DNA of 64,000 nt, from assembly GCA_963793265.1 (NCBI GenBank), contig CAWBZI010000001.1, positions 128,001-192,000 on the forward strand, written 5' to 3'. The translations under genes were made by a program, and so were the position numbers. Position 1 is the first letter of the stretch. The number at the start of each line of letters is the position of its first letter. This document shows, piece by piece, positions 3,953 to 20,207 of the stretch. Source of the stretch: an uncultured cyanobacterium (GTDB lineage: Bacteria; Cyanobacteriota; Cyanobacteriia; Phormidesmidales; Phormidesmidaceae). A model generated the notes under the pieces. The model saw nothing but the letters and a program-made list of their open reading frames with translations, was not told the origin of the DNA and searched no databases.

Positions 3953-4771
<819 letters not shown>

Positions 4772-5016: not shown

Positions 5017-5635
5017 TTAGTGCCGGAAAAAACGCCGACGGGTAGGCGCGTAGAAATCGAGCCGTTCGACTCCGGCATACTGCCCTTCGATGGCTCCGAC
5101 TGGAAAAGCAGTGAGCCGGTATATGTAGATGCCATCACGCGGATTGCGAGCTTTTAGTGCGACTGTGACCGGACGGCCCGGCTCAACGGGTGGGTCAAAT
5201 TCTACGGTGAGGGTTCTTTCAGAGCGACCGCCATCTACTACATTTAGAGGCAGGCGATCGCGGCTATCAGCATCAAATGCGTAGCTATCGTCATCGTCAT
5301 AGCGAGGATAGTCAACGCCCTCAATCTGCTCAAACACTATCTTCTCTAACGGCTCAACCGCATCAGCCGGAAAATCAAACGTAAATAGATAGTTCGAGCG
5401 GCGATATTGCAAGTTGTTAGGGATGCGTACGTTAGTTACGCGCAGCGGCCTGCGAAAGCTGATTGCAGAATTAGTAGCCGGTGTTAGTCCCGACAGTTCA
5501 GCATGCAGGCTGAGATTCCTCAAGCTGTTCGGATGAGGAAGGGAGATTGAGGCTTTCTTGGGCTATGGCCGGAGCAAGGGACGCTACTAAAACTGAGGCA
5601 ATGGCGATTGGAAACAGGCGAGAAAGGCTAGTCAT
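5017..5635 (-). pseudogene. DUF2808-like secreted protein; signal-peptide segment is out of frame with the body
   Basis: Body 5017..5523 has YLFTFDFPADAVEPL, VEFDPPVEPG, NPRDGIYIY and AFPVG (DUF2808-like). ATG at 5635 encodes MTSLSRLFPIAIASVLVASLAPAIA-QES but stops at 5500..5498 and is offset by 1 nt from the body frame. Confidence 0.55.
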
Positions 5636-5734
5636 GGGGAGCGATCGCAAGCAGCATCCACTAAATTCTAAATTAAATAAAGTTGAATCAACAAAACCTT
5701 TGCCCTACCATGCCAACAGCCCTTCCTTTCCTAA

Positions 5735-7132
5735 ATGCTTTTATCCATCACCACCACTCACCAGCCCGCAACCGATCTGGGCCATCTGCTACACAAGCAC
5801 CCCGATCGCCTTCAGACCTTTCCGATGAACTTTGGGCCGGTGAGCTGTGGAAAAGCACACGTGTTTTACCCAGAGGCCACCACTGAAAGCTGTACGGTGT
5901 TGCTGTTGCTAGAAGTCGATCCGGCTGGGCGTGATAAGTCAGCTTTTGAAAAGCAAAGTGTGCTCAACCAAACCATCAACGATCGGCCCTATGTGGCCTC
6001 GTCTTTTCTGAGCGTAGCGATGCTCAAGGTGTTCAAAACTGCAATGCTAGGCCGTTCTACAGATCGCCCCGGTTTGGCGCTTAGCCAAATTCCATTGACC
6101 GTAAGCATCCCTGTTTTACCCTGTAGAGGTGGAGAGTTCTTTTTACAGCAGCTATTCGAGCCGTTAGGCTATGAAGCTACGGGCGATCCAATTCCTTTAG
6201 ATCAAACCTTTTCAGATTGGGGAGAAAGTAATTATCTCTCCGTCACGCTCAAGAATACTGTTCGACTAGCTGACTTGCTCAATCATCTATGTGTATTGAT
6301 TCCTGCGTTGGATGATGAAAAATACGATTGGCTAGTAGCAGAGGACATTCATAGACTGTTGCAGCGAGGAGAGAAATGGTTAGCGAAGCATCCAGCGAGA
6401 GAGGTGATCGCCCGCAGGTATCAGCCCCAAAAGCCACGCTACTCTAATGCACCGCTGGCCCGGTTAGAAGAAGACATCTCTTTCGACGCTGAAGCAGAAG
6501 AGAGAGAATATGTTTGGAAGGCGATCGCAGCTCAAAAGCCCAATAATCTACAGCAGCGCCGACTGACCGCAGTCGTTGAAGTACTAAAGGAGCGGGGTGC
6601 TAAGAATGTCGTTGACCTTGGCTGCGGGGAAGGCGATTTACTCGAAAAGCTAAGTGAAGATGATTTGTTTGAGAAGATCGTAGGTGTTGATGTCTCTCAG
6701 CTTGCGATCAGTCAGGCCAGGAAGAAATTGAATTTAGATGACATTTCAGAATCACAGCGCCCACAAGTTTTACAGGGTTCGCTGCTGTATGAGGACGAGC
6801 GATTACAAGGTTGTGATGCGTTGACCATAGTAGAAGTTATCGAGCATATTAATAGCGATCGCCTCCCCGAATTCGAGCATATCGTCTTTGAATTCATACG
6901 GCCAAAAACAATTATTCTAACGACCCCAAATGCTGAATACAACGTGCGCTATCCAATGCCACTAGGCGCATTCCGCGATCCAGACCACCGTTTTGAATGG
7001 ACTCGACAGGAATTTAAGAAGTGGGCTGAGGCGATCGCTAAGCAATACGGCTACACGCTCACCGTCACGGGCATTGGTGATGAGTATTTTGAGCTAGGAA
7101 CGCCGACGCAGATGGGTGTGTTTTGCAGATGA
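5735..7132 (+). CDS. hen1: 3'-terminal RNA ribose 2'-O-methyltransferase Hen1
   Basis: N-terminal ligase-activating domain (ATDLGHLLHKHPDR, NDRPYVASSFLSVA); C-terminal methyltransferase with DLGCGEG, EVIEH, TTPNAEYN and DHRFEWTR. Confidence 0.95.
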   Translation: MLLSITTTHQPATDLGHLLHKHPDRLQTFPMNFGPVSCGKAHVFYPEATTESCTVLLLLEVDPAGRDKSAFEKQSVLNQTINDRPYVASSFLSVAMLKVFKTAMLGRSTDRPGLALSQIPLTVSIPVLPCRGGEFFLQQLFEPLGYEATGDPIPLDQTFSDWGESNYLSVTLKNTVRLADLLNHLCVLIPALDDEKYDWLVAEDIHRLLQRGEKWLAKHPAREVIARRYQPQKPRYSNAPLARLEEDISFDAEAEEREYVWKAIAAQKPNNLQQRRLTAVVEVLKERGAKNVVDLGCGEGDLLEKLSEDDLFEKIVGVDVSQLAISQARKKLNLDDISESQRPQVLQGSLLYEDERLQGCDALTIVEVIEHINSDRLPEFEHIVFEFIRPKTIILTTPNAEYNVRYPMPLGAFRDPDHRFEWTRQEFKKWAEAIAKQYGYTLTVTGIGDEYFELGTPTQMGVFCR

Positions 7133-8895
7133 AGTTAACTATTCCAACGCGATCACTCGTAATTCTAATGGGTGCTTCAGGCTCAGGAAAGTCTTCCTTC
7201 GCTAAAAAGCACTTTAAAGCAACAGAAATTCTATCGTCTGATAAGTTCAGAGCAATGGTGCGCGACGATGAAAGCGATCAGTCAGCCTCTAAAGATGCTT
7301 TTGACGTGCTGCACTATGTGCTGAGAAAGCGGCTAGCGGCGGGGCGGCTGACGGTGATAGATGCGACGAATGTACGCTCGAAAGACAGGCGGTCTTTGCT
7401 GAAGCTAGCGGAGGAGTATCAGGTGAGTGTGGTTGCGATCGCCCTCAACCTTCCAGAGTCAATCTGCCAAAAGCGCAACCAGCAACGGCCAAATCGGCAG
7501 GTACCTTCTGAAGTGGTGAGTAATCAGGTGGAGAGTTTGGGGCGATCGCTAGCCAACCTAAACCAAGCAAGATTTCACCATGTCTATATCCTCACCACTC
7601 CCGAAGAAATTGACGCTGTTGAAATAGAACGAAAACAAATCTCCAAGCCCCACAGCGACAGGCTAAACGTCACCCATCTACTCGGTAAAAAAGTACTGGC
7701 TACTCGTCTCTACAAAAAGATCACCCTCAGACCAGAAAACACCGCCGCTGCCCTAGAAGTCATAAGCCGGTTCGCTCTCAATCCAAAATGGCTAATCTAC
7801 CTACCGCCCACTACCCCACCTGTAGAAACCTCAACCCTTCCTAACTTTTTAGAGCACCCCACAGCCGCCTTCGACTACTACCGTCAGCAAGGCGTCGAAA
7901 CCCTTATGTGTCAAGAAAAACATATGGGAACGCGAGCCGTCATCATCCTATGTCGCAACGAATCGGTGGTGCAAAAGCGATTCGGTCTATCAGAAGCCAG
8001 TATCGGCACCTGCTACACGCGCACCGGACGACGTTTTTTTGACAATTCAGCTTTAGAAAAAGACTTTTTAACGCGCATAAGTGACGCTTTGACCCAGGCG
8101 AACTTTTGGAAAACATTTGCAACTGATTGGATCTGCTTTGAAGGCGAGATAATGCCCTGGTCGCTCAAAGCGAAAGGACTCATAAAACACCGATACGCCG
8201 CAGTTGGAACAGCCGCTACGCACGGACTAGACGCTGCTATCAATCATCTCAAAAGCGCCAATAGCCGCATAGATGTCTCCAACGTGCTATCTCAATATCA
8301 ACATAAAAAAGAGCTATCCCAACAGTACGTAGCTGCCTACCGTAAGCACTGCTGGCCGGTCAATGAACTTTCAGATTTGAAGCTAGCGCCCTTTCACATT
8401 CTGGCAACCGAAGGCAAAGTCCATACCGACAAAACGCATGAATGGCATATGCAGCAAATTGCCAAATGGACTCAGTTTAATACCGAGCTGCTGCTCTCTA
8501 CTCGCTATAAAACCGTTCACGTAAATGATGAAAATAGCTGCGCAGAAGGCATTCGCTGGTGGGAAGATCTGACGGCGGCGGGCGGCGATGGCATAGTGAT
8601 CAAGCCTATGGATTTTATTCACCAGGGGCAAAAGGGAGTTGTGCAACCGGCTTTGAAATGTCGAGGGATGGAGGCTTTGCGGCTGGTGTATGGGCCGGAG
8701 TATTCGCTGCCAGAGAATTTGGTGCGGTTGAAGAAAAGGGGATTGGGGAAGAAACGTGCGATCGCCTTTAGAGAATTCGCACTAGGCATAGAATCCTTAG
8801 AACGATTCGTCAATAAAAACTCACTCCAAGACGTTCACGAGTGCGTGTTTGGAATTCTCGCCCTGGAAAGTGAGTCTGTAGACCCCAGACTGTGA
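7129..8895 (+). CDS. pnkp: Pnkp-like polynucleotide kinase-RNA ligase fusion lacking the phosphatase domain
   Basis: ATGA overlap with the hen1 stop. Kinase motifs GASGSGKS, SSDKFR, DATN. Ligase motifs EKHMGTR, EGEIMPWS, LAPFHILATEG, DGIVIKP, KCRG, C-terminal ESVDPRL. No metallophosphoesterase motifs. Confidence 0.9.
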   Translation: MKLTIPTRSLVILMGASGSGKSSFAKKHFKATEILSSDKFRAMVRDDESDQSASKDAFDVLHYVLRKRLAAGRLTVIDATNVRSKDRRSLLKLAEEYQVSVVAIALNLPESICQKRNQQRPNRQVPSEVVSNQVESLGRSLANLNQARFHHVYILTTPEEIDAVEIERKQISKPHSDRLNVTHLLGKKVLATRLYKKITLRPENTAAALEVISRFALNPKWLIYLPPTTPPVETSTLPNFLEHPTAAFDYYRQQGVETLMCQEKHMGTRAVIILCRNESVVQKRFGLSEASIGTCYTRTGRRFFDNSALEKDFLTRISDALTQANFWKTFATDWICFEGEIMPWSLKAKGLIKHRYAAVGTAATHGLDAAINHLKSANSRIDVSNVLSQYQHKKELSQQYVAAYRKHCWPVNELSDLKLAPFHILATEGKVHTDKTHEWHMQQIAKWTQFNTELLLSTRYKTVHVNDENSCAEGIRWWEDLTAAGGDGIVIKPMDFIHQGQKGVVQPALKCRGMEALRLVYGPEYSLPENLVRLKKRGLGKKRAIAFREFALGIESLERFVNKNSLQDVHECVFGILALESESVDPRL

Positions 8896-8965
8896 TATTA
8901 AAGGCCACATAGCGTTACGATCAGACAAAGCGCGATCGCCTCAACTCCATAAACCTCTCCCTTTT

Positions 8966-11395
8966 GTGTCTATCCTTACGCCCGCTCACGACTGGTTCGC
9001 CCAGCAAAACTGGAAGCCGCTTACCTTTCAAAAACAAACCTGGAAAGCATATCTAGCCAGTAAGAGCGGCATCATCCAGGTACCTACAGGCTCAGGTAAA
9101 ACCTACGGAGCCGTCATCGGGCCACTGATGCAAATGCTATCTGAGGCCGAAAAAACAGACAAGCCACCTGTCGGACTTCAGCTACTCTACATCACACCGC
9201 TGCGAGCTTTGTCCCGCGATATCGAAGCCTCCATTCGGCGTCCCATTGAAGAAATGGACTGGCCCATCACCGTAGAGTCTCGAACAGGCGACACCAAATC
9301 TTCAGTAAAGACTCGGCAGATCAAAAAAATGCCAAATGTCTTAATCACCACACCGGAGTCGCTAGCGGTTCTCCTCTCCTACAAAAACTCAGTCAAACGG
9401 TTTGACAGTTTACGCTGCGTGATTTTAGACGAGTGGCACGAGCTAATGGCCTCCAAACGCGGAACCCAGACTGAGCTGTGCATGTCACGGCTGCGCGAGC
9501 TAAACCCCACCGTACAAACCTGGGCAATCTCAGCAACGCTGGGAAACTTACAGGAAGCGGCTGAAGCAGCCACGGGCATAGACAGCAATCCTGTTGTTGT
9601 CCAGTCAAAGATCAAGCGCAAGACCAAAATTATCAGCATCCTACCCGAATCAGTAGACACCTTTCCCTGGGCCGGACATTTGGGCCTACGAATGTTTGAG
9701 GAGTTAGTAGCCGCGCTGGATATTGAACGCTCCACGCTAATATTCGTAAACACCCGATCGCAGGCCGAGCGATGGTTTCAGGCGCTCAACTTTTCCCTAC
9801 CCGACCACGAAAAGCAGATCGCACTACACCATGGCTCTATCGACTTCGACACCCGCCTAGCCATTGAAGCGGGCATCAAATCAGGCGATACCAAATGGGT
9901 CGTTTGCACCTCTTCCTTAGATTTAGGCGTAGACTTTCAGCCAGTAGAGCGCGTCGTTCAAATCGGCAGCGCCAAAAACCTGGCTCGACTATTGCAAAGA
10001 GCAGGCCGCTCGGCCCACCTACCCGGCGGCACATCTGAAGTGTTCTTTTTGCCCACCAATGCCTTAGAGCTGCTAGAAATATCCGCCTTTCGTAGAGGAC
10101 TCGCCGCCGGACAAATCGAGTCTCGCCATACGCTAGACAAGCCTTATGACGTGCTGCTTCAGCACTTAGTTACATTAGCCTGCGGCGATGGGTTCTCAGC
10201 GAAAGAAACGTTTGCAGCCATTAAGAATACTTTTTCTTACAGAGCGCTAACACAAACAGAATTTGACTGGATATTAGACTTCTTGCAGCATGGCGGGAAG
10301 TGCCTGAAAGCCTATCCACGCTATCAGAAGCTCGTAGTTGAAGACGGTAAGTACGTGATTGCCTCGCCGCAAATTTCAAGAATGCATAAGCTGAGTATTG
10401 GCACAATTACCGGCAATCAGCAGGTAAAGATTGCCTATGCCAAAGGTAGCCGTATCGGTACGGTAGAAGAGAGCTTTGTTTCAAGACTCAAGAAAGGAGA
10501 TGTGTTCTTTTTTGCCGGACGACAGCTCGAATTCTTTCAGATGAAAGATATGACCTTGTACGTGAAGAATGCAAAGAAAAAATCTAACGTAGTGCCTGTT
10601 TGGAGTGGCGGCTATATGGCCATTTCAGACTGCTTGAGTCAATTCATTCGAGAAGAAATCACGCAGGCTAAAGAAGGCAACGTGAGCCGAGAAGTCGAAT
10701 GCATTATGCCAATATTGGCTGCGCAGGATCGAATTTCTCACCTACCAAGCGCCGATCAGTTCTTAATTGAATGTTGCCGTACGCGCGAAGGACAGCATCT
10801 ATACGTCTATCCTTTCGAGGGTCGTAATGTACACGAAGGCATTGGTTTTTTATGGGCTTATCGATTCTCGCAGCTCGGTAAAGCCACCTTTACGGTATCA
10901 GTGAACGATTATGGATTCGAGATCTTAGCACCTAAAGACTATCCATTCGCGAAGCTGTTTGATGAGGGATTCTTCTCTACTCGAAACCTGTACGAAGAAA
11001 TAAAAGAGAGTTTAAATATCTCCGAGCTGACCCAGCGTCGGTTTCGGGGCATTTCTCAGGTGTCAGGGCTGGTGTTTAAGGGCTACCCAAGTTCACGTAA
11101 AACAGCGAATCAGGTTCAGATTAGCTCATCGCTTATCTATGAGGTATTTACTAAATATGAGCCGGATAATTTACTGCTTCAGCAGGCTGAAAGAGAGGTC
11201 ATTGATTCGCAAATGGAGACGCCAAGGCTAGCAGCGGCCCTGAAGCGAATTAATCAGCTAGAACTGGTATGGCAGGAGATTAAGCGGCCTTCTCCTTTGG
11301 GGTTTCCGCTGCTGGTGGAGCGATTGAGTTCAAGGCTGACCAATGAGAGTTTGCGCGATCGCATCGAACGCCTAAAGCAGCAGTGGGACAAGTAG
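8966..11395 (+). CDS. Lhr-family DEXH-box helicase (ligase-associated DNA damage response type)
   Basis: PTGSGKT, YITPLRAL, TTPESL, DEWH, SAT, HHGS, TSSLDLGVDF, QRAGRSAH, PFEGR motifs; 809 aa, Lhr-core size. Confidence 0.92.
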   Translation: MSILTPAHDWFAQQNWKPLTFQKQTWKAYLASKSGIIQVPTGSGKTYGAVIGPLMQMLSEAEKTDKPPVGLQLLYITPLRALSRDIEASIRRPIEEMDWPITVESRTGDTKSSVKTRQIKKMPNVLITTPESLAVLLSYKNSVKRFDSLRCVILDEWHELMASKRGTQTELCMSRLRELNPTVQTWAISATLGNLQEAAEAATGIDSNPVVVQSKIKRKTKIISILPESVDTFPWAGHLGLRMFEELVAALDIERSTLIFVNTRSQAERWFQALNFSLPDHEKQIALHHGSIDFDTRLAIEAGIKSGDTKWVVCTSSLDLGVDFQPVERVVQIGSAKNLARLLQRAGRSAHLPGGTSEVFFLPTNALELLEISAFRRGLAAGQIESRHTLDKPYDVLLQHLVTLACGDGFSAKETFAAIKNTFSYRALTQTEFDWILDFLQHGGKCLKAYPRYQKLVVEDGKYVIASPQISRMHKLSIGTITGNQQVKIAYAKGSRIGTVEESFVSRLKKGDVFFFAGRQLEFFQMKDMTLYVKNAKKKSNVVPVWSGGYMAISDCLSQFIREEITQAKEGNVSREVECIMPILAAQDRISHLPSADQFLIECCRTREGQHLYVYPFEGRNVHEGIGFLWAYRFSQLGKATFTVSVNDYGFEILAPKDYPFAKLFDEGFFSTRNLYEEIKESLNISELTQRRFRGISQVSGLVFKGYPSSRKTANQVQISSSLIYEVFTKYEPDNLLLQQAEREVIDSQMETPRLAAALKRINQLELVWQEIKRPSPLGFPLLVERLSSRLTNESLRDRIERLKQQWDK

Positions 11396-12379: not shown

Positions 12380-12778
12380 CTACTCAACTAAAGCTATAGG
12401 AATAAACCGTCTATAGCTTTCAAAGTCTTTGTCGGTTGTCAGAATAGAGTACTGCCGTCTAGTAGATATTGCACAAATCAAGAAGTCAGTATTTGCACCT
12501 TGAATGCCCTGCTGACGACAAGTATTGAAGTAGCTAGCAGCTAGCTCATAATCTTCTGTTTCCAAAGAAAAACTAGGAAACGTACGCAAAACAGATTTCA
12601 ACCGCTCGTACTGTGATTGCTCTCGAATGCCAGAAAGCAACTCTTGCCTTACAGCACCGACCAAAACCACTCGACCGTCCGTAATGAGTTCTTGTAGCAC
12701 TGCAACTTTTGGGTGTAGCTGCACTTGAGAGCGCCTAAAAGCCAAAGACCAAACAGAGGTATCAACAACAACCTTCAT
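12380..12778 (-). CDS. vapC: VapC-family PIN-domain toxin
   Basis: VVDTSVW, QELLSG, TDFLI and TTDKDF acidic PIN motifs. Confidence 0.9.
   Translation of the reverse strand: MKVVVDTSVWSLAFRRSQVQLHPKVAVLQELITDGRVVLVGAVRQELLSGIREQSQYERLKSVLRTFPSFSLETEDYELAASYFNTCRQQGIQGANTDFLICAISTRRQYSILTTDKDFESYRRFIPIALVE

Positions 12779-19277: not shown

Positions 19278-20207
<930 letters not shown>

Follow-up and report, generated by a model that had tools for sequence, protein, structure and literature searches.

We analysed a 64,000-nucleotide stretch of DNA from an uncultured cyanobacterium, here called the window, which contains a hen1-pnkp RNA repair operon. The Pnkp, encoded by the open reading frame 7129-8895 on the forward strand, has 588 amino acids and carries a kinase and a ligase but no phosphatase domain. 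The original prediction, made by inspecting the sequence, had claimed exactly this, and three kinds of evidence agree on it. In the Pfam scan the protein matched AAA_33 at residues 10-139 and PNKP_ligase (PF16542) at residues 207-582 (553 bits), and no match to Metallophos (PF00149) was returned. The TIGR04075 model aligns in a single open frame at model positions 1-171 and 435-851, and positions 172-434, the metallophosphoesterase region, are missing. The solved chains of the Clostridium thermocellum enzyme cover residues 1-169 (kinase) and 179-588 (ligase). The protein still reaches a whole-protein score of 827.6 with TIGR04075, where the cut-off is 750, so that automatic naming conceals the loss.

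Features expected of a Pnkp-Hen1 system were checked individually. The N-terminal P-loop 5'-OH kinase with Lys21, Asp38 and Arg41 is present, as is a co-oriented hen1 neighbour with both an N domain and a methylase, while the central binuclear metallophosphoesterase (Asp187, His189, Asp233, Asn263, His264, His323 and His376 in C. thermocellum) is missing. Hen1 scores 588.9 bits with TIGR04074 (cut-off 340), has PF12623 at residues 1-244 and matches the PDB entries 4dqz and 3jwg. The motifs EVIEH and DHRFEW and the ATGA coupling of the two genes were seen as predicted, and the in-frame linker of about 10 residues, expected near 7630-7660, was found there (Table 1). Promoter and terminator scans gave results at chance level.

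The genome from which the window comes (G000), rated 99% complete, has only one pnkp. A second full-length or a split copy was considered, and the other matches are a 251-residue gene resembling ApaH and lambda phosphatase and a 166-residue AAA_33 kinase.

Table 1. Position of the features discussed, in window coordinates
Feature	Position	Strand	Description
hen1	5735..7132	+	N-terminal ligase-activating domain, about residues 1-245; C-terminal RNA 2'-O-methyltransferase, about residues 275-465
ATGA overlap	7129..7132	+	hen1 stop TGA (7130-7132) over pnkp ATG (7129-7131); translational coupling
Pnkp 5'-OH polynucleotide kinase domain	7129..7632	+	Residues 1-168; PDB 4gp6, E 2e-53
Pnkp junction	7633..7662	+	About 8-10 residues in place of a metallophosphoesterase domain of about 263 positions; TIGR04075 gap, alignment, X1 contig
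Pnkp ligase module	7663..8895	+	Residues 179-588; adenylyltransferase, insert domain, C-terminal VDPRL; PF16542, PDB 4drf
Motif IV Glu to Asp (E487D)	8587..8589	+	Predicted to impair sealing
lhr	8966-11395		Ligase-associated DEXH helicase (TIGR04121); starts 70 bp past pnkp
PIN-domain open reading frame	12380-12778		VapC-like; 3.5 kb downstream of pnkp
hetR homolog	19281-20207		Peptidase_S48 and HetR_C
HpiC1-like cyclase domain protein	3953-4771		PF22825; no obvious biosynthetic cluster around it

AlphaFold2, run on an alignment of 112 rows, folded both domains with a mean predicted local distance difference test (pLDDT) of 92.9 and a predicted template modelling score of 0.71. Residues 172-175 at the junction are the sole segment below a pLDDT of 50. 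In Foldseek the kinase superimposes on 4gp6 with a root-mean-square deviation of 0.7 Å over 169 columns, and the ligase best matches the Hen1-bound structure 4e6n, with a template modelling score of 0.95 by target length and a deviation of 2.0 Å. Sequence identity to the solved domains is 51-54%. In the canonical system the ligase contacts the N domain of Hen1 via its insert and C-terminal part. The complex predicted for the ligase with the N domain of Hen1 scored 0.87, and the best of three controls 0.00. The mark used for this score is reached by 116 of 157 solved pairs and by 2 of 215 mismatched pairs, with contacts agreeing to at least 85% and a partner pLDDT of at least 81. Since a like complex has already been solved, the score indicates likeness to that complex rather than binding by the window copy.

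Neighbouring genes are given for orientation. In two congeners (G066 and G030) other genes intervene between pnkp and lhr, and the helicase is regarded as a neighbour without implying membership in the system. HetR is known in some filamentous cyanobacteria, and the named relatives of the host are not known to be heterocyst formers. The HpiC1-like protein has a PEP-CTERM-like tail.

Origin and distribution of the deletion

The original prediction had named an assembly fault at the junction, or a deletion private to one strain, as ways in which it could fail, and neither applies. A 4318-bp contig of metagenome run X1 spans positions 5506-9200 unbroken, with 16 substitutions and 0 gaps. In the remaining three of the four runs, which are fragmented there, no listed piece extends 31 letters beyond the junction in both directions. 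The runs with this DNA are macroalgae (seaweed) and sediment metagenomes; no RNA dataset is among the sequencing runs matching the locus, which says nothing on expression.

The same deletion is shared by a sister lineage of 10 proteins, all of 590 amino acids and 77% identical to the window Pnkp, with borders that agree within about 3 residues. Together with the three members of the window's own cluster this gives 13 deleted proteins, the sister records being of one source type, possibly from related samples, and known as proteins only. Close homologs that carry a name are annotated as Phormidesmis and other cyanobacteria. A cluster of nine Hen1 proteins of 465 amino acids, at 81% identity and from the same source type, is likely the partner of the sister Pnkp. 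Single records elsewhere (P0056, P0165, P0194, P0219, P0274 and P0280) do show partial deletions of the kind expected from faults in assembly or gene calling; for the window, the X1 contig and the sharing of the deletion by two clusters refute such an origin, which we find scarcely credible.

In trees of 20 and 61 rows, built on the columns of kinase and ligase, the two deleted forms come out as each other's sister (100/100), adjoin three full-length proteins (100/98) and form with them a clade with support of 100/100. Two of the full-length sisters sit in G066 and G020, the genomes also closest to G000 on a core gene. The gene neighbourhood is ancestral, as nnr and a cation exchanger upstream and lhr downstream are kept in G066 and G030, and the upstream neighbours also in several further congeners. 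These conserved flanks mean that the loss occurred in place and, most simply, once; the phosphatase was likely lost in frame in the ancestor of the two sister lineages. Microhomology at the domain borders was considered as a cause and rejected: the longest exact repeats in eight full-length genes measure 4-7 nucleotides and are in frame in four. A stretch resembling (R/Q/K)-P-L is encoded at both borders.

The kinase-ligase form is rare, and its persistence is shown by the cyanobacterial pair only. Short spacing between kinase and ligase was found in 22 of the 317 fetched proteins with both matches: 13 are in the two cyanobacterial clusters, two are single clean deletions (P0160 and P0281) and seven are singles with partial or larger losses. 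None of the 45 congeners carries a deletion of the window type. A DNA pattern allowing only 381-441 nucleotides between motifs, both halves of which matched 26 of 26 full-length genes tested from just two taxonomic groups, was searched in 185,579 species genomes, excluding the window's own. One of eight matches was true, in a metagenome-assembled genome of the Thermoanaerobaculaceae. With the same pattern none of four matches in Joint Genome Institute metagenomes was real, nor was the one in viral contigs. Among plasmids, none of 17 matches covered 80% of the query in one place.

The Thermoanaerobaculaceae case (L068:2992-6620 / L146:9417-17200) is an independent clean loss of the phosphatase, in the 614-residue P0160. 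The operon is expanded, with hen1, two unknown open reading frames, RlaP, a UPF0175/DUF3368 pair and pnkp. The deletion occurs in one genome only, and an 89% identical relative is full length; the other 40 matching genomes (of 92 in the family) gave no single match over the whole query. P0281 is a single kinase-ligase protein of 568 amino acids without phosphatase, at 43% identity.

Proposed function of the remaining enzyme

Pnkp-Hen1 repair is described as removal of the cyclic phosphate by the phosphatase, followed by methylation by Hen1 and sealing by the Hen1-activated ligase (PMC3675462). Lacking the phosphatase, the window pair cannot finish a ribotoxin-type cyclic-phosphate break alone. 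Healing and sealing by separate proteins is reported to work in vitro (PMC1920235; PMC4411300). The reading that we tentatively prefer is a retained but weakened kinase-ligase-methylase system that acts on 3'-OH RNA breaks, with 3' healing outsourced. Substrates with 3'-OH ends, or a phosphatase acting in trans, had also been suggested by the original prediction, and both are conjectures.

In this scheme an inherited Hen1-Pnkp operon would have lost the phosphatase domain of Pnkp in frame. The kinase would phosphorylate 5'-OH ends, the N domain of Hen1 would bind and open the ligase, Hen1 would methylate the 2'-OH of a clean 3' end, and the ligase would seal, though weakly in the window's lineage if E487D acts as predicted. 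The weakest step concerns cyclic and 3' phosphates, which general phosphoesterases or 3' trimming might remove slowly with no dedicated partner.

Purifying selection has continued on what remains of Pnkp. Between the window protein (P0001) and its sister (P0004), 8 of 136 conserved, 40 of 244 intermediate and 78 of 189 variable columns differ (Fisher p 5e-14). Single-nucleotide polymorphisms among strains comprise 12 synonymous and 7 nonsynonymous changes in pnkp (one-sided p 0.02 against an expected 62% nonsynonymous), and the 7 all lie outside the columns conserved to at least 90%; the counts are low, and some of the contigs have shallow coverage. When the conserved columns are taken from a cyanobacterial consensus, the differences between P0001 and P0004 in the kinase (5/66) and the adenylyltransferase core (7/112) stay within a background of 453 pairs of like divergence, mutually non-independent, whose 95th percentiles are 7 and 8, and the C-terminal module (4/50) is also inside it.

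The kinase keeps K21, D38, R41, F58, T80, R120 and R123. H133 is a glutamine, as it is in 39 of 108 homologs. The residue roles follow PMC3902929, and the kinase residues found there to be essential in C. thermocellum have all been retained. In the ligase, K264, R298, R301, E340, F422, K492, K510 and R512 are kept in both lineages. The fold, the insert, the C-terminal helical module and the nucleotidyltransferase motifs I, Ia, III, IIIa, IV and V are present, with Asp in place of the motif IV Glu in the window copy and Glu in the sister lineage. The motifs are labelled after DraRnl and NgrRnl.

Several observations weigh against the preferred reading, the first being this substitution. Motif IV reads GDGIVIKP, i.e. 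E487D, in all three members of the window's cluster. None of the other 108 Pnkp proteins in the alignment has Asp here; of all the proteins fetched, one other, which is divergent, has it. In NgrRnl the motif IV glutamate is reported to bind the catalytic metal (PMC7261155), and in DraRnl, an RNA ligase of Deinococcus, E305D reportedly lowers nick sealing to 1%, adenylylation to 17% and the last step to 27% (PMC1807946). By analogy, E487D is predicted to weaken sealing in the window's own lineage. The original prediction, that catalytic motifs are intact on both sides of the junction, fails for the ligase. Its further suggestion of a working variant stands in so far as the deletion is in frame, shared and followed by purifying selection, and falls short in the altered ligase motif and in the clade-wide drift of the ligase and the Hen1 N domain.

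The second observation is drift. Relative to the broad consensus, 8 conserved columns differ between the two deleted forms, more than in any of the 453 background pairs (mean 1.7, maximum 4), while by the cyanobacterial consensus only the ligase insert goes beyond the background, with differences at 3 of 23 fixed columns where the maximum is 2. The two consensus sets thus differ as to degree; constraint on the remaining Pnkp is real, yet looser than usual. The drift extends over the clade, whose members differ from the family at 27-31 of the 187 fixed columns of the ligase (mean 5.1 and maximum 10 in a background of 42 rows). The full-length sisters likewise show 27-31/187 in the ligase, but only 9-11/125 in the phosphatase (mean 6.6, maximum 12), and decay of the phosphatase ahead of its loss was rejected on this ground. 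Clade-wide ligase changes that predate the loss are Y516A/S, I520V, I206A, Q355R and Y407H/N, and both deleted lineages add L337F, D338E and C339G beside motif III. An enrichment of the clade changes at the predicted interface of ligase and Hen1 N domain was not significant (12 Fisher tests, p 0.05-1.0).

Third, no dedicated phosphatase was found. G000 encodes 12 metallophosphoesterases and one 2H phosphoesterase (G000:C6:803153-803629); none of the 12 lies in the operon, the HAD and HD families having been outside this search. The gene closest to the Pnkp phosphatase, that resembling ApaH and lambda phosphatase (G000:C1:840256-841008), is present in 45 of 46 congeners and, as a core gene of the genus, does not qualify as a dedicated partner. 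Lambda phosphatase is reported to open cyclic phosphates while the monoester stays (PMC2190708). 2H enzymes (ThpR) are reported to leave a 2'-phosphate (PMC4201822), which would block Hen1. RtcB, Tpt1 and an Rnl2-type ligase were sought in G000 as back-up and none was found; both this result and the supply of phosphoesterases in G000 speak for the preferred reading.

A stand-alone RlaP nucleotidyltransferase (PF10127) is encoded at G000:C1:32336-33106 (L145:8337-9107), and 6 of 46 congeners have one. RlaP is described as adding a nucleoside monophosphate to RNA 3'-OH ends (PMC12776372). It was rejected as a specific partner, as the G000 copy lies about 100 kb away, at the position where it is also found in G065, a genome with a full-length pnkp.

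Two further points weigh against the preferred reading. Among 45 congeners, pnkp has a full-length frame in 16, is cut by contig ends in 3, is broken by stops or frame changes in 5 and has no match (E 1e-30) in 21, a total of 26 in which the operon is absent or damaged. For the sister lineage, whose records are proteins only, linkage of pnkp to hen1 on one DNA was not observed.

Alternative explanations

The main rival is slow decay: the operon is dispensable in the genus, ligation came under weaker selection in one clade, loss of the phosphatase then carried no cost and the rest is eroding. We consider this somewhat unlikely. The 21 congeners without a pnkp match and the five broken copies fit it, as does E487D. 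It also draws on an acceleration specific to the locus. The rate of nonsynonymous substitution (dN) of the ligase from G000 to the background genomes is 0.24-0.28, compared with 0.12-0.21 among background pairs, and both hen1 and pnkp are faster in G000 while the flanking nakx, nnr and lhr are not faster than in congeners. The synonymous rate is saturated in most pairs between species (proportion of synonymous differences, pS, 0.48-0.85), and only relative dN was used. The N domain of Hen1 departs at 14-24 of 99 near-invariant columns in five clade members (14 in the window copy) and at 0-10 in 34 of 35 other rows, the outlier, P0416, carrying clade-like changes.

In G020, whose genome also holds a full-length pnkp and RtcB, hen1 lies in two frames (G020:C5:51487-52855). 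This split gene counts for decay, though it may be a sequencing error rather than a pseudogene. Against decay, both genes keep open frames in two lineages 23% apart, the change in Pnkp is strongly graded by column conservation, synonymous changes are in excess among strains, and the phosphatase of the full-length sisters is not degenerate.

Marking of RNA ends without repair is a second, unlikely explanation. Here the kinase and the Hen1 methylase would cap RNA ends with a 5'-phosphate, a 3'-terminal 2'-O-methyl group and perhaps 5'-adenylylation, and the ligase would mainly be a scaffold tethering Hen1 to the kinase dimer. Several findings suit such a role: the ligase and the N domain of Hen1 show the greatest drift, all five aligned clade members retain the methylase motifs EVIEH and DHRFEW, the DraRnl E305D enzyme retains more adenylylation than sealing, and three congeners without a pnkp match (G006, G018 and G025) have Hen1 matches that cover the methylase domain only. 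The sister lineage nevertheless keeps the motif IV Glu, the eight ligase residues from K264 to R512 are kept in both lineages, and the methylase domain drifts as well, at 8-12 of 64 fixed columns in the clade versus 0-5 in 34 of 35 other rows.

The methylase-only matches are at L117:9425-10102 (G025), L118:9609-10289 (G018) and G006:C255:1085-1723, with open reading frames of about 226 amino acids in G025 and G018. The two loci that were read are without the usual flanking genes. Possibly they reflect a ligation-independent role for bacterial Hen1.

Quite unlikely, in our view, is that the clade first re-tuned the ligase and the N domain of Hen1 and that one branch then dropped the phosphatase, giving a kinase-ligase-methylase for different RNA ends, which might be those of 3'-OH/5'-OH breaks or ends that a 2H enzyme has opened. 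To the narrower proposal, that a re-tuned ligase accepts unhealed 3' ends (2'-phosphate or cyclic phosphate) and makes the phosphatase redundant, we give little credence: the clade-wide changes did precede the loss, with L337F, D338E and C339G added later, G000 has a 2H cyclic phosphodiesterase which might produce 2'-phosphate ends, and one mutation can reportedly shift the end specificity of the system (PMC1920235), but no Tpt1 was found in G000 to remove a junction 2'-phosphate, a 2'-phosphate end is not 2'-O-methylatable although the Hen1 active site is kept, and the full-length sisters retain a conserved phosphatase.

Relation to known repair systems

The window Pnkp descends from the Pnkp-Hen1 system, would act like a part of it and is a variant of it rather than a full member, because the defining phosphatase is missing. 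It shares with the canonical system the order and coupling of hen1 and pnkp, the kinase with K21, D38 and R41, the Pnkp-type ligase with its insert and C-terminal DPRL, and a Hen1 with N domain and methylase. It differs in having 588 amino acids and no metallophosphoesterase, compared with about 860-870 amino acids, in the motif IV Asp of the window copy, and in a ligase and Hen1 N domain that have changed at sites which are usually fixed. The canonical complex is a 2:2 tetramer, and in its published model it is the phosphatases that connect the kinase dimer with the ligase-Hen1 pairs (PMC3675462); with these linkers gone, the geometry of the complex must differ.

The Pnkp1-Rnl-Hen1 system of Capnocytophaga gingivalis (PDB 4xrp/4xru) is described in PMC4411300 as having a ligase-Hen1 pair not covalently tied to a phosphatase and a ligase that directly contacts the kinase domain, and in both it is alike. 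It is unlike in having a dedicated third subunit, a T4-type kinase-phosphatase, whose gene accompanies that of the ligase. In the window system kinase and ligase form one protein and a dedicated phosphatase was not found; the ligases of the two systems are just 17-18% identical. The window locus does not match a stand-alone Rnl with a T4-type kinase-HAD phosphatase Pnkp1, the genome not having been searched for HAD; its ligase shares a chain with a C. thermocellum-type kinase and has hen1 and the Lhr helicase as neighbours. The HD-kinase-Pnkp-ligase protein P0387 (802 amino acids) also joins a kinase to a Pnkp-type ligase, without a calcineurin-like domain in between. Its N-terminal HD domain (weak in Pfam, E 6e-5), which may replace the phosphatase, has no counterpart in the window Pnkp.

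No kinase-ligase Pnkp beside Hen1 was described in the literature searched, which did not include the RNA repair survey of Burroughs and Aravind, where the architecture may be listed. According to PMC4411300, it is not known what bacterial Pnkp-Hen1 acts on in vivo.

The form is rare and the operon is often lost in the genus, which limits the weight of the case, and forms that pass the TIGR04075 cut-off are named as ordinary kinase-phosphatases. Repair at the 3' end has been taken to start, of necessity, with the phosphatase. Its absence from two lineages in which both genes stay under selection amounts to a natural deletion experiment, with P0001, which has Asp in motif IV, and P0004, which has Glu there, as a built-in control pair. 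The experiment bears on whether 3' healing can be outsourced, whether methylase and kinase have tasks apart from ligation, and how a complex assembles that lacks the domain modelled as its linker. Should the clade indeed have re-tuned its ligase and Hen1 before the loss, this would suggest that bacterial Hen1-Pnkp has a substrate in vivo other than ribotoxin-cut tRNA.

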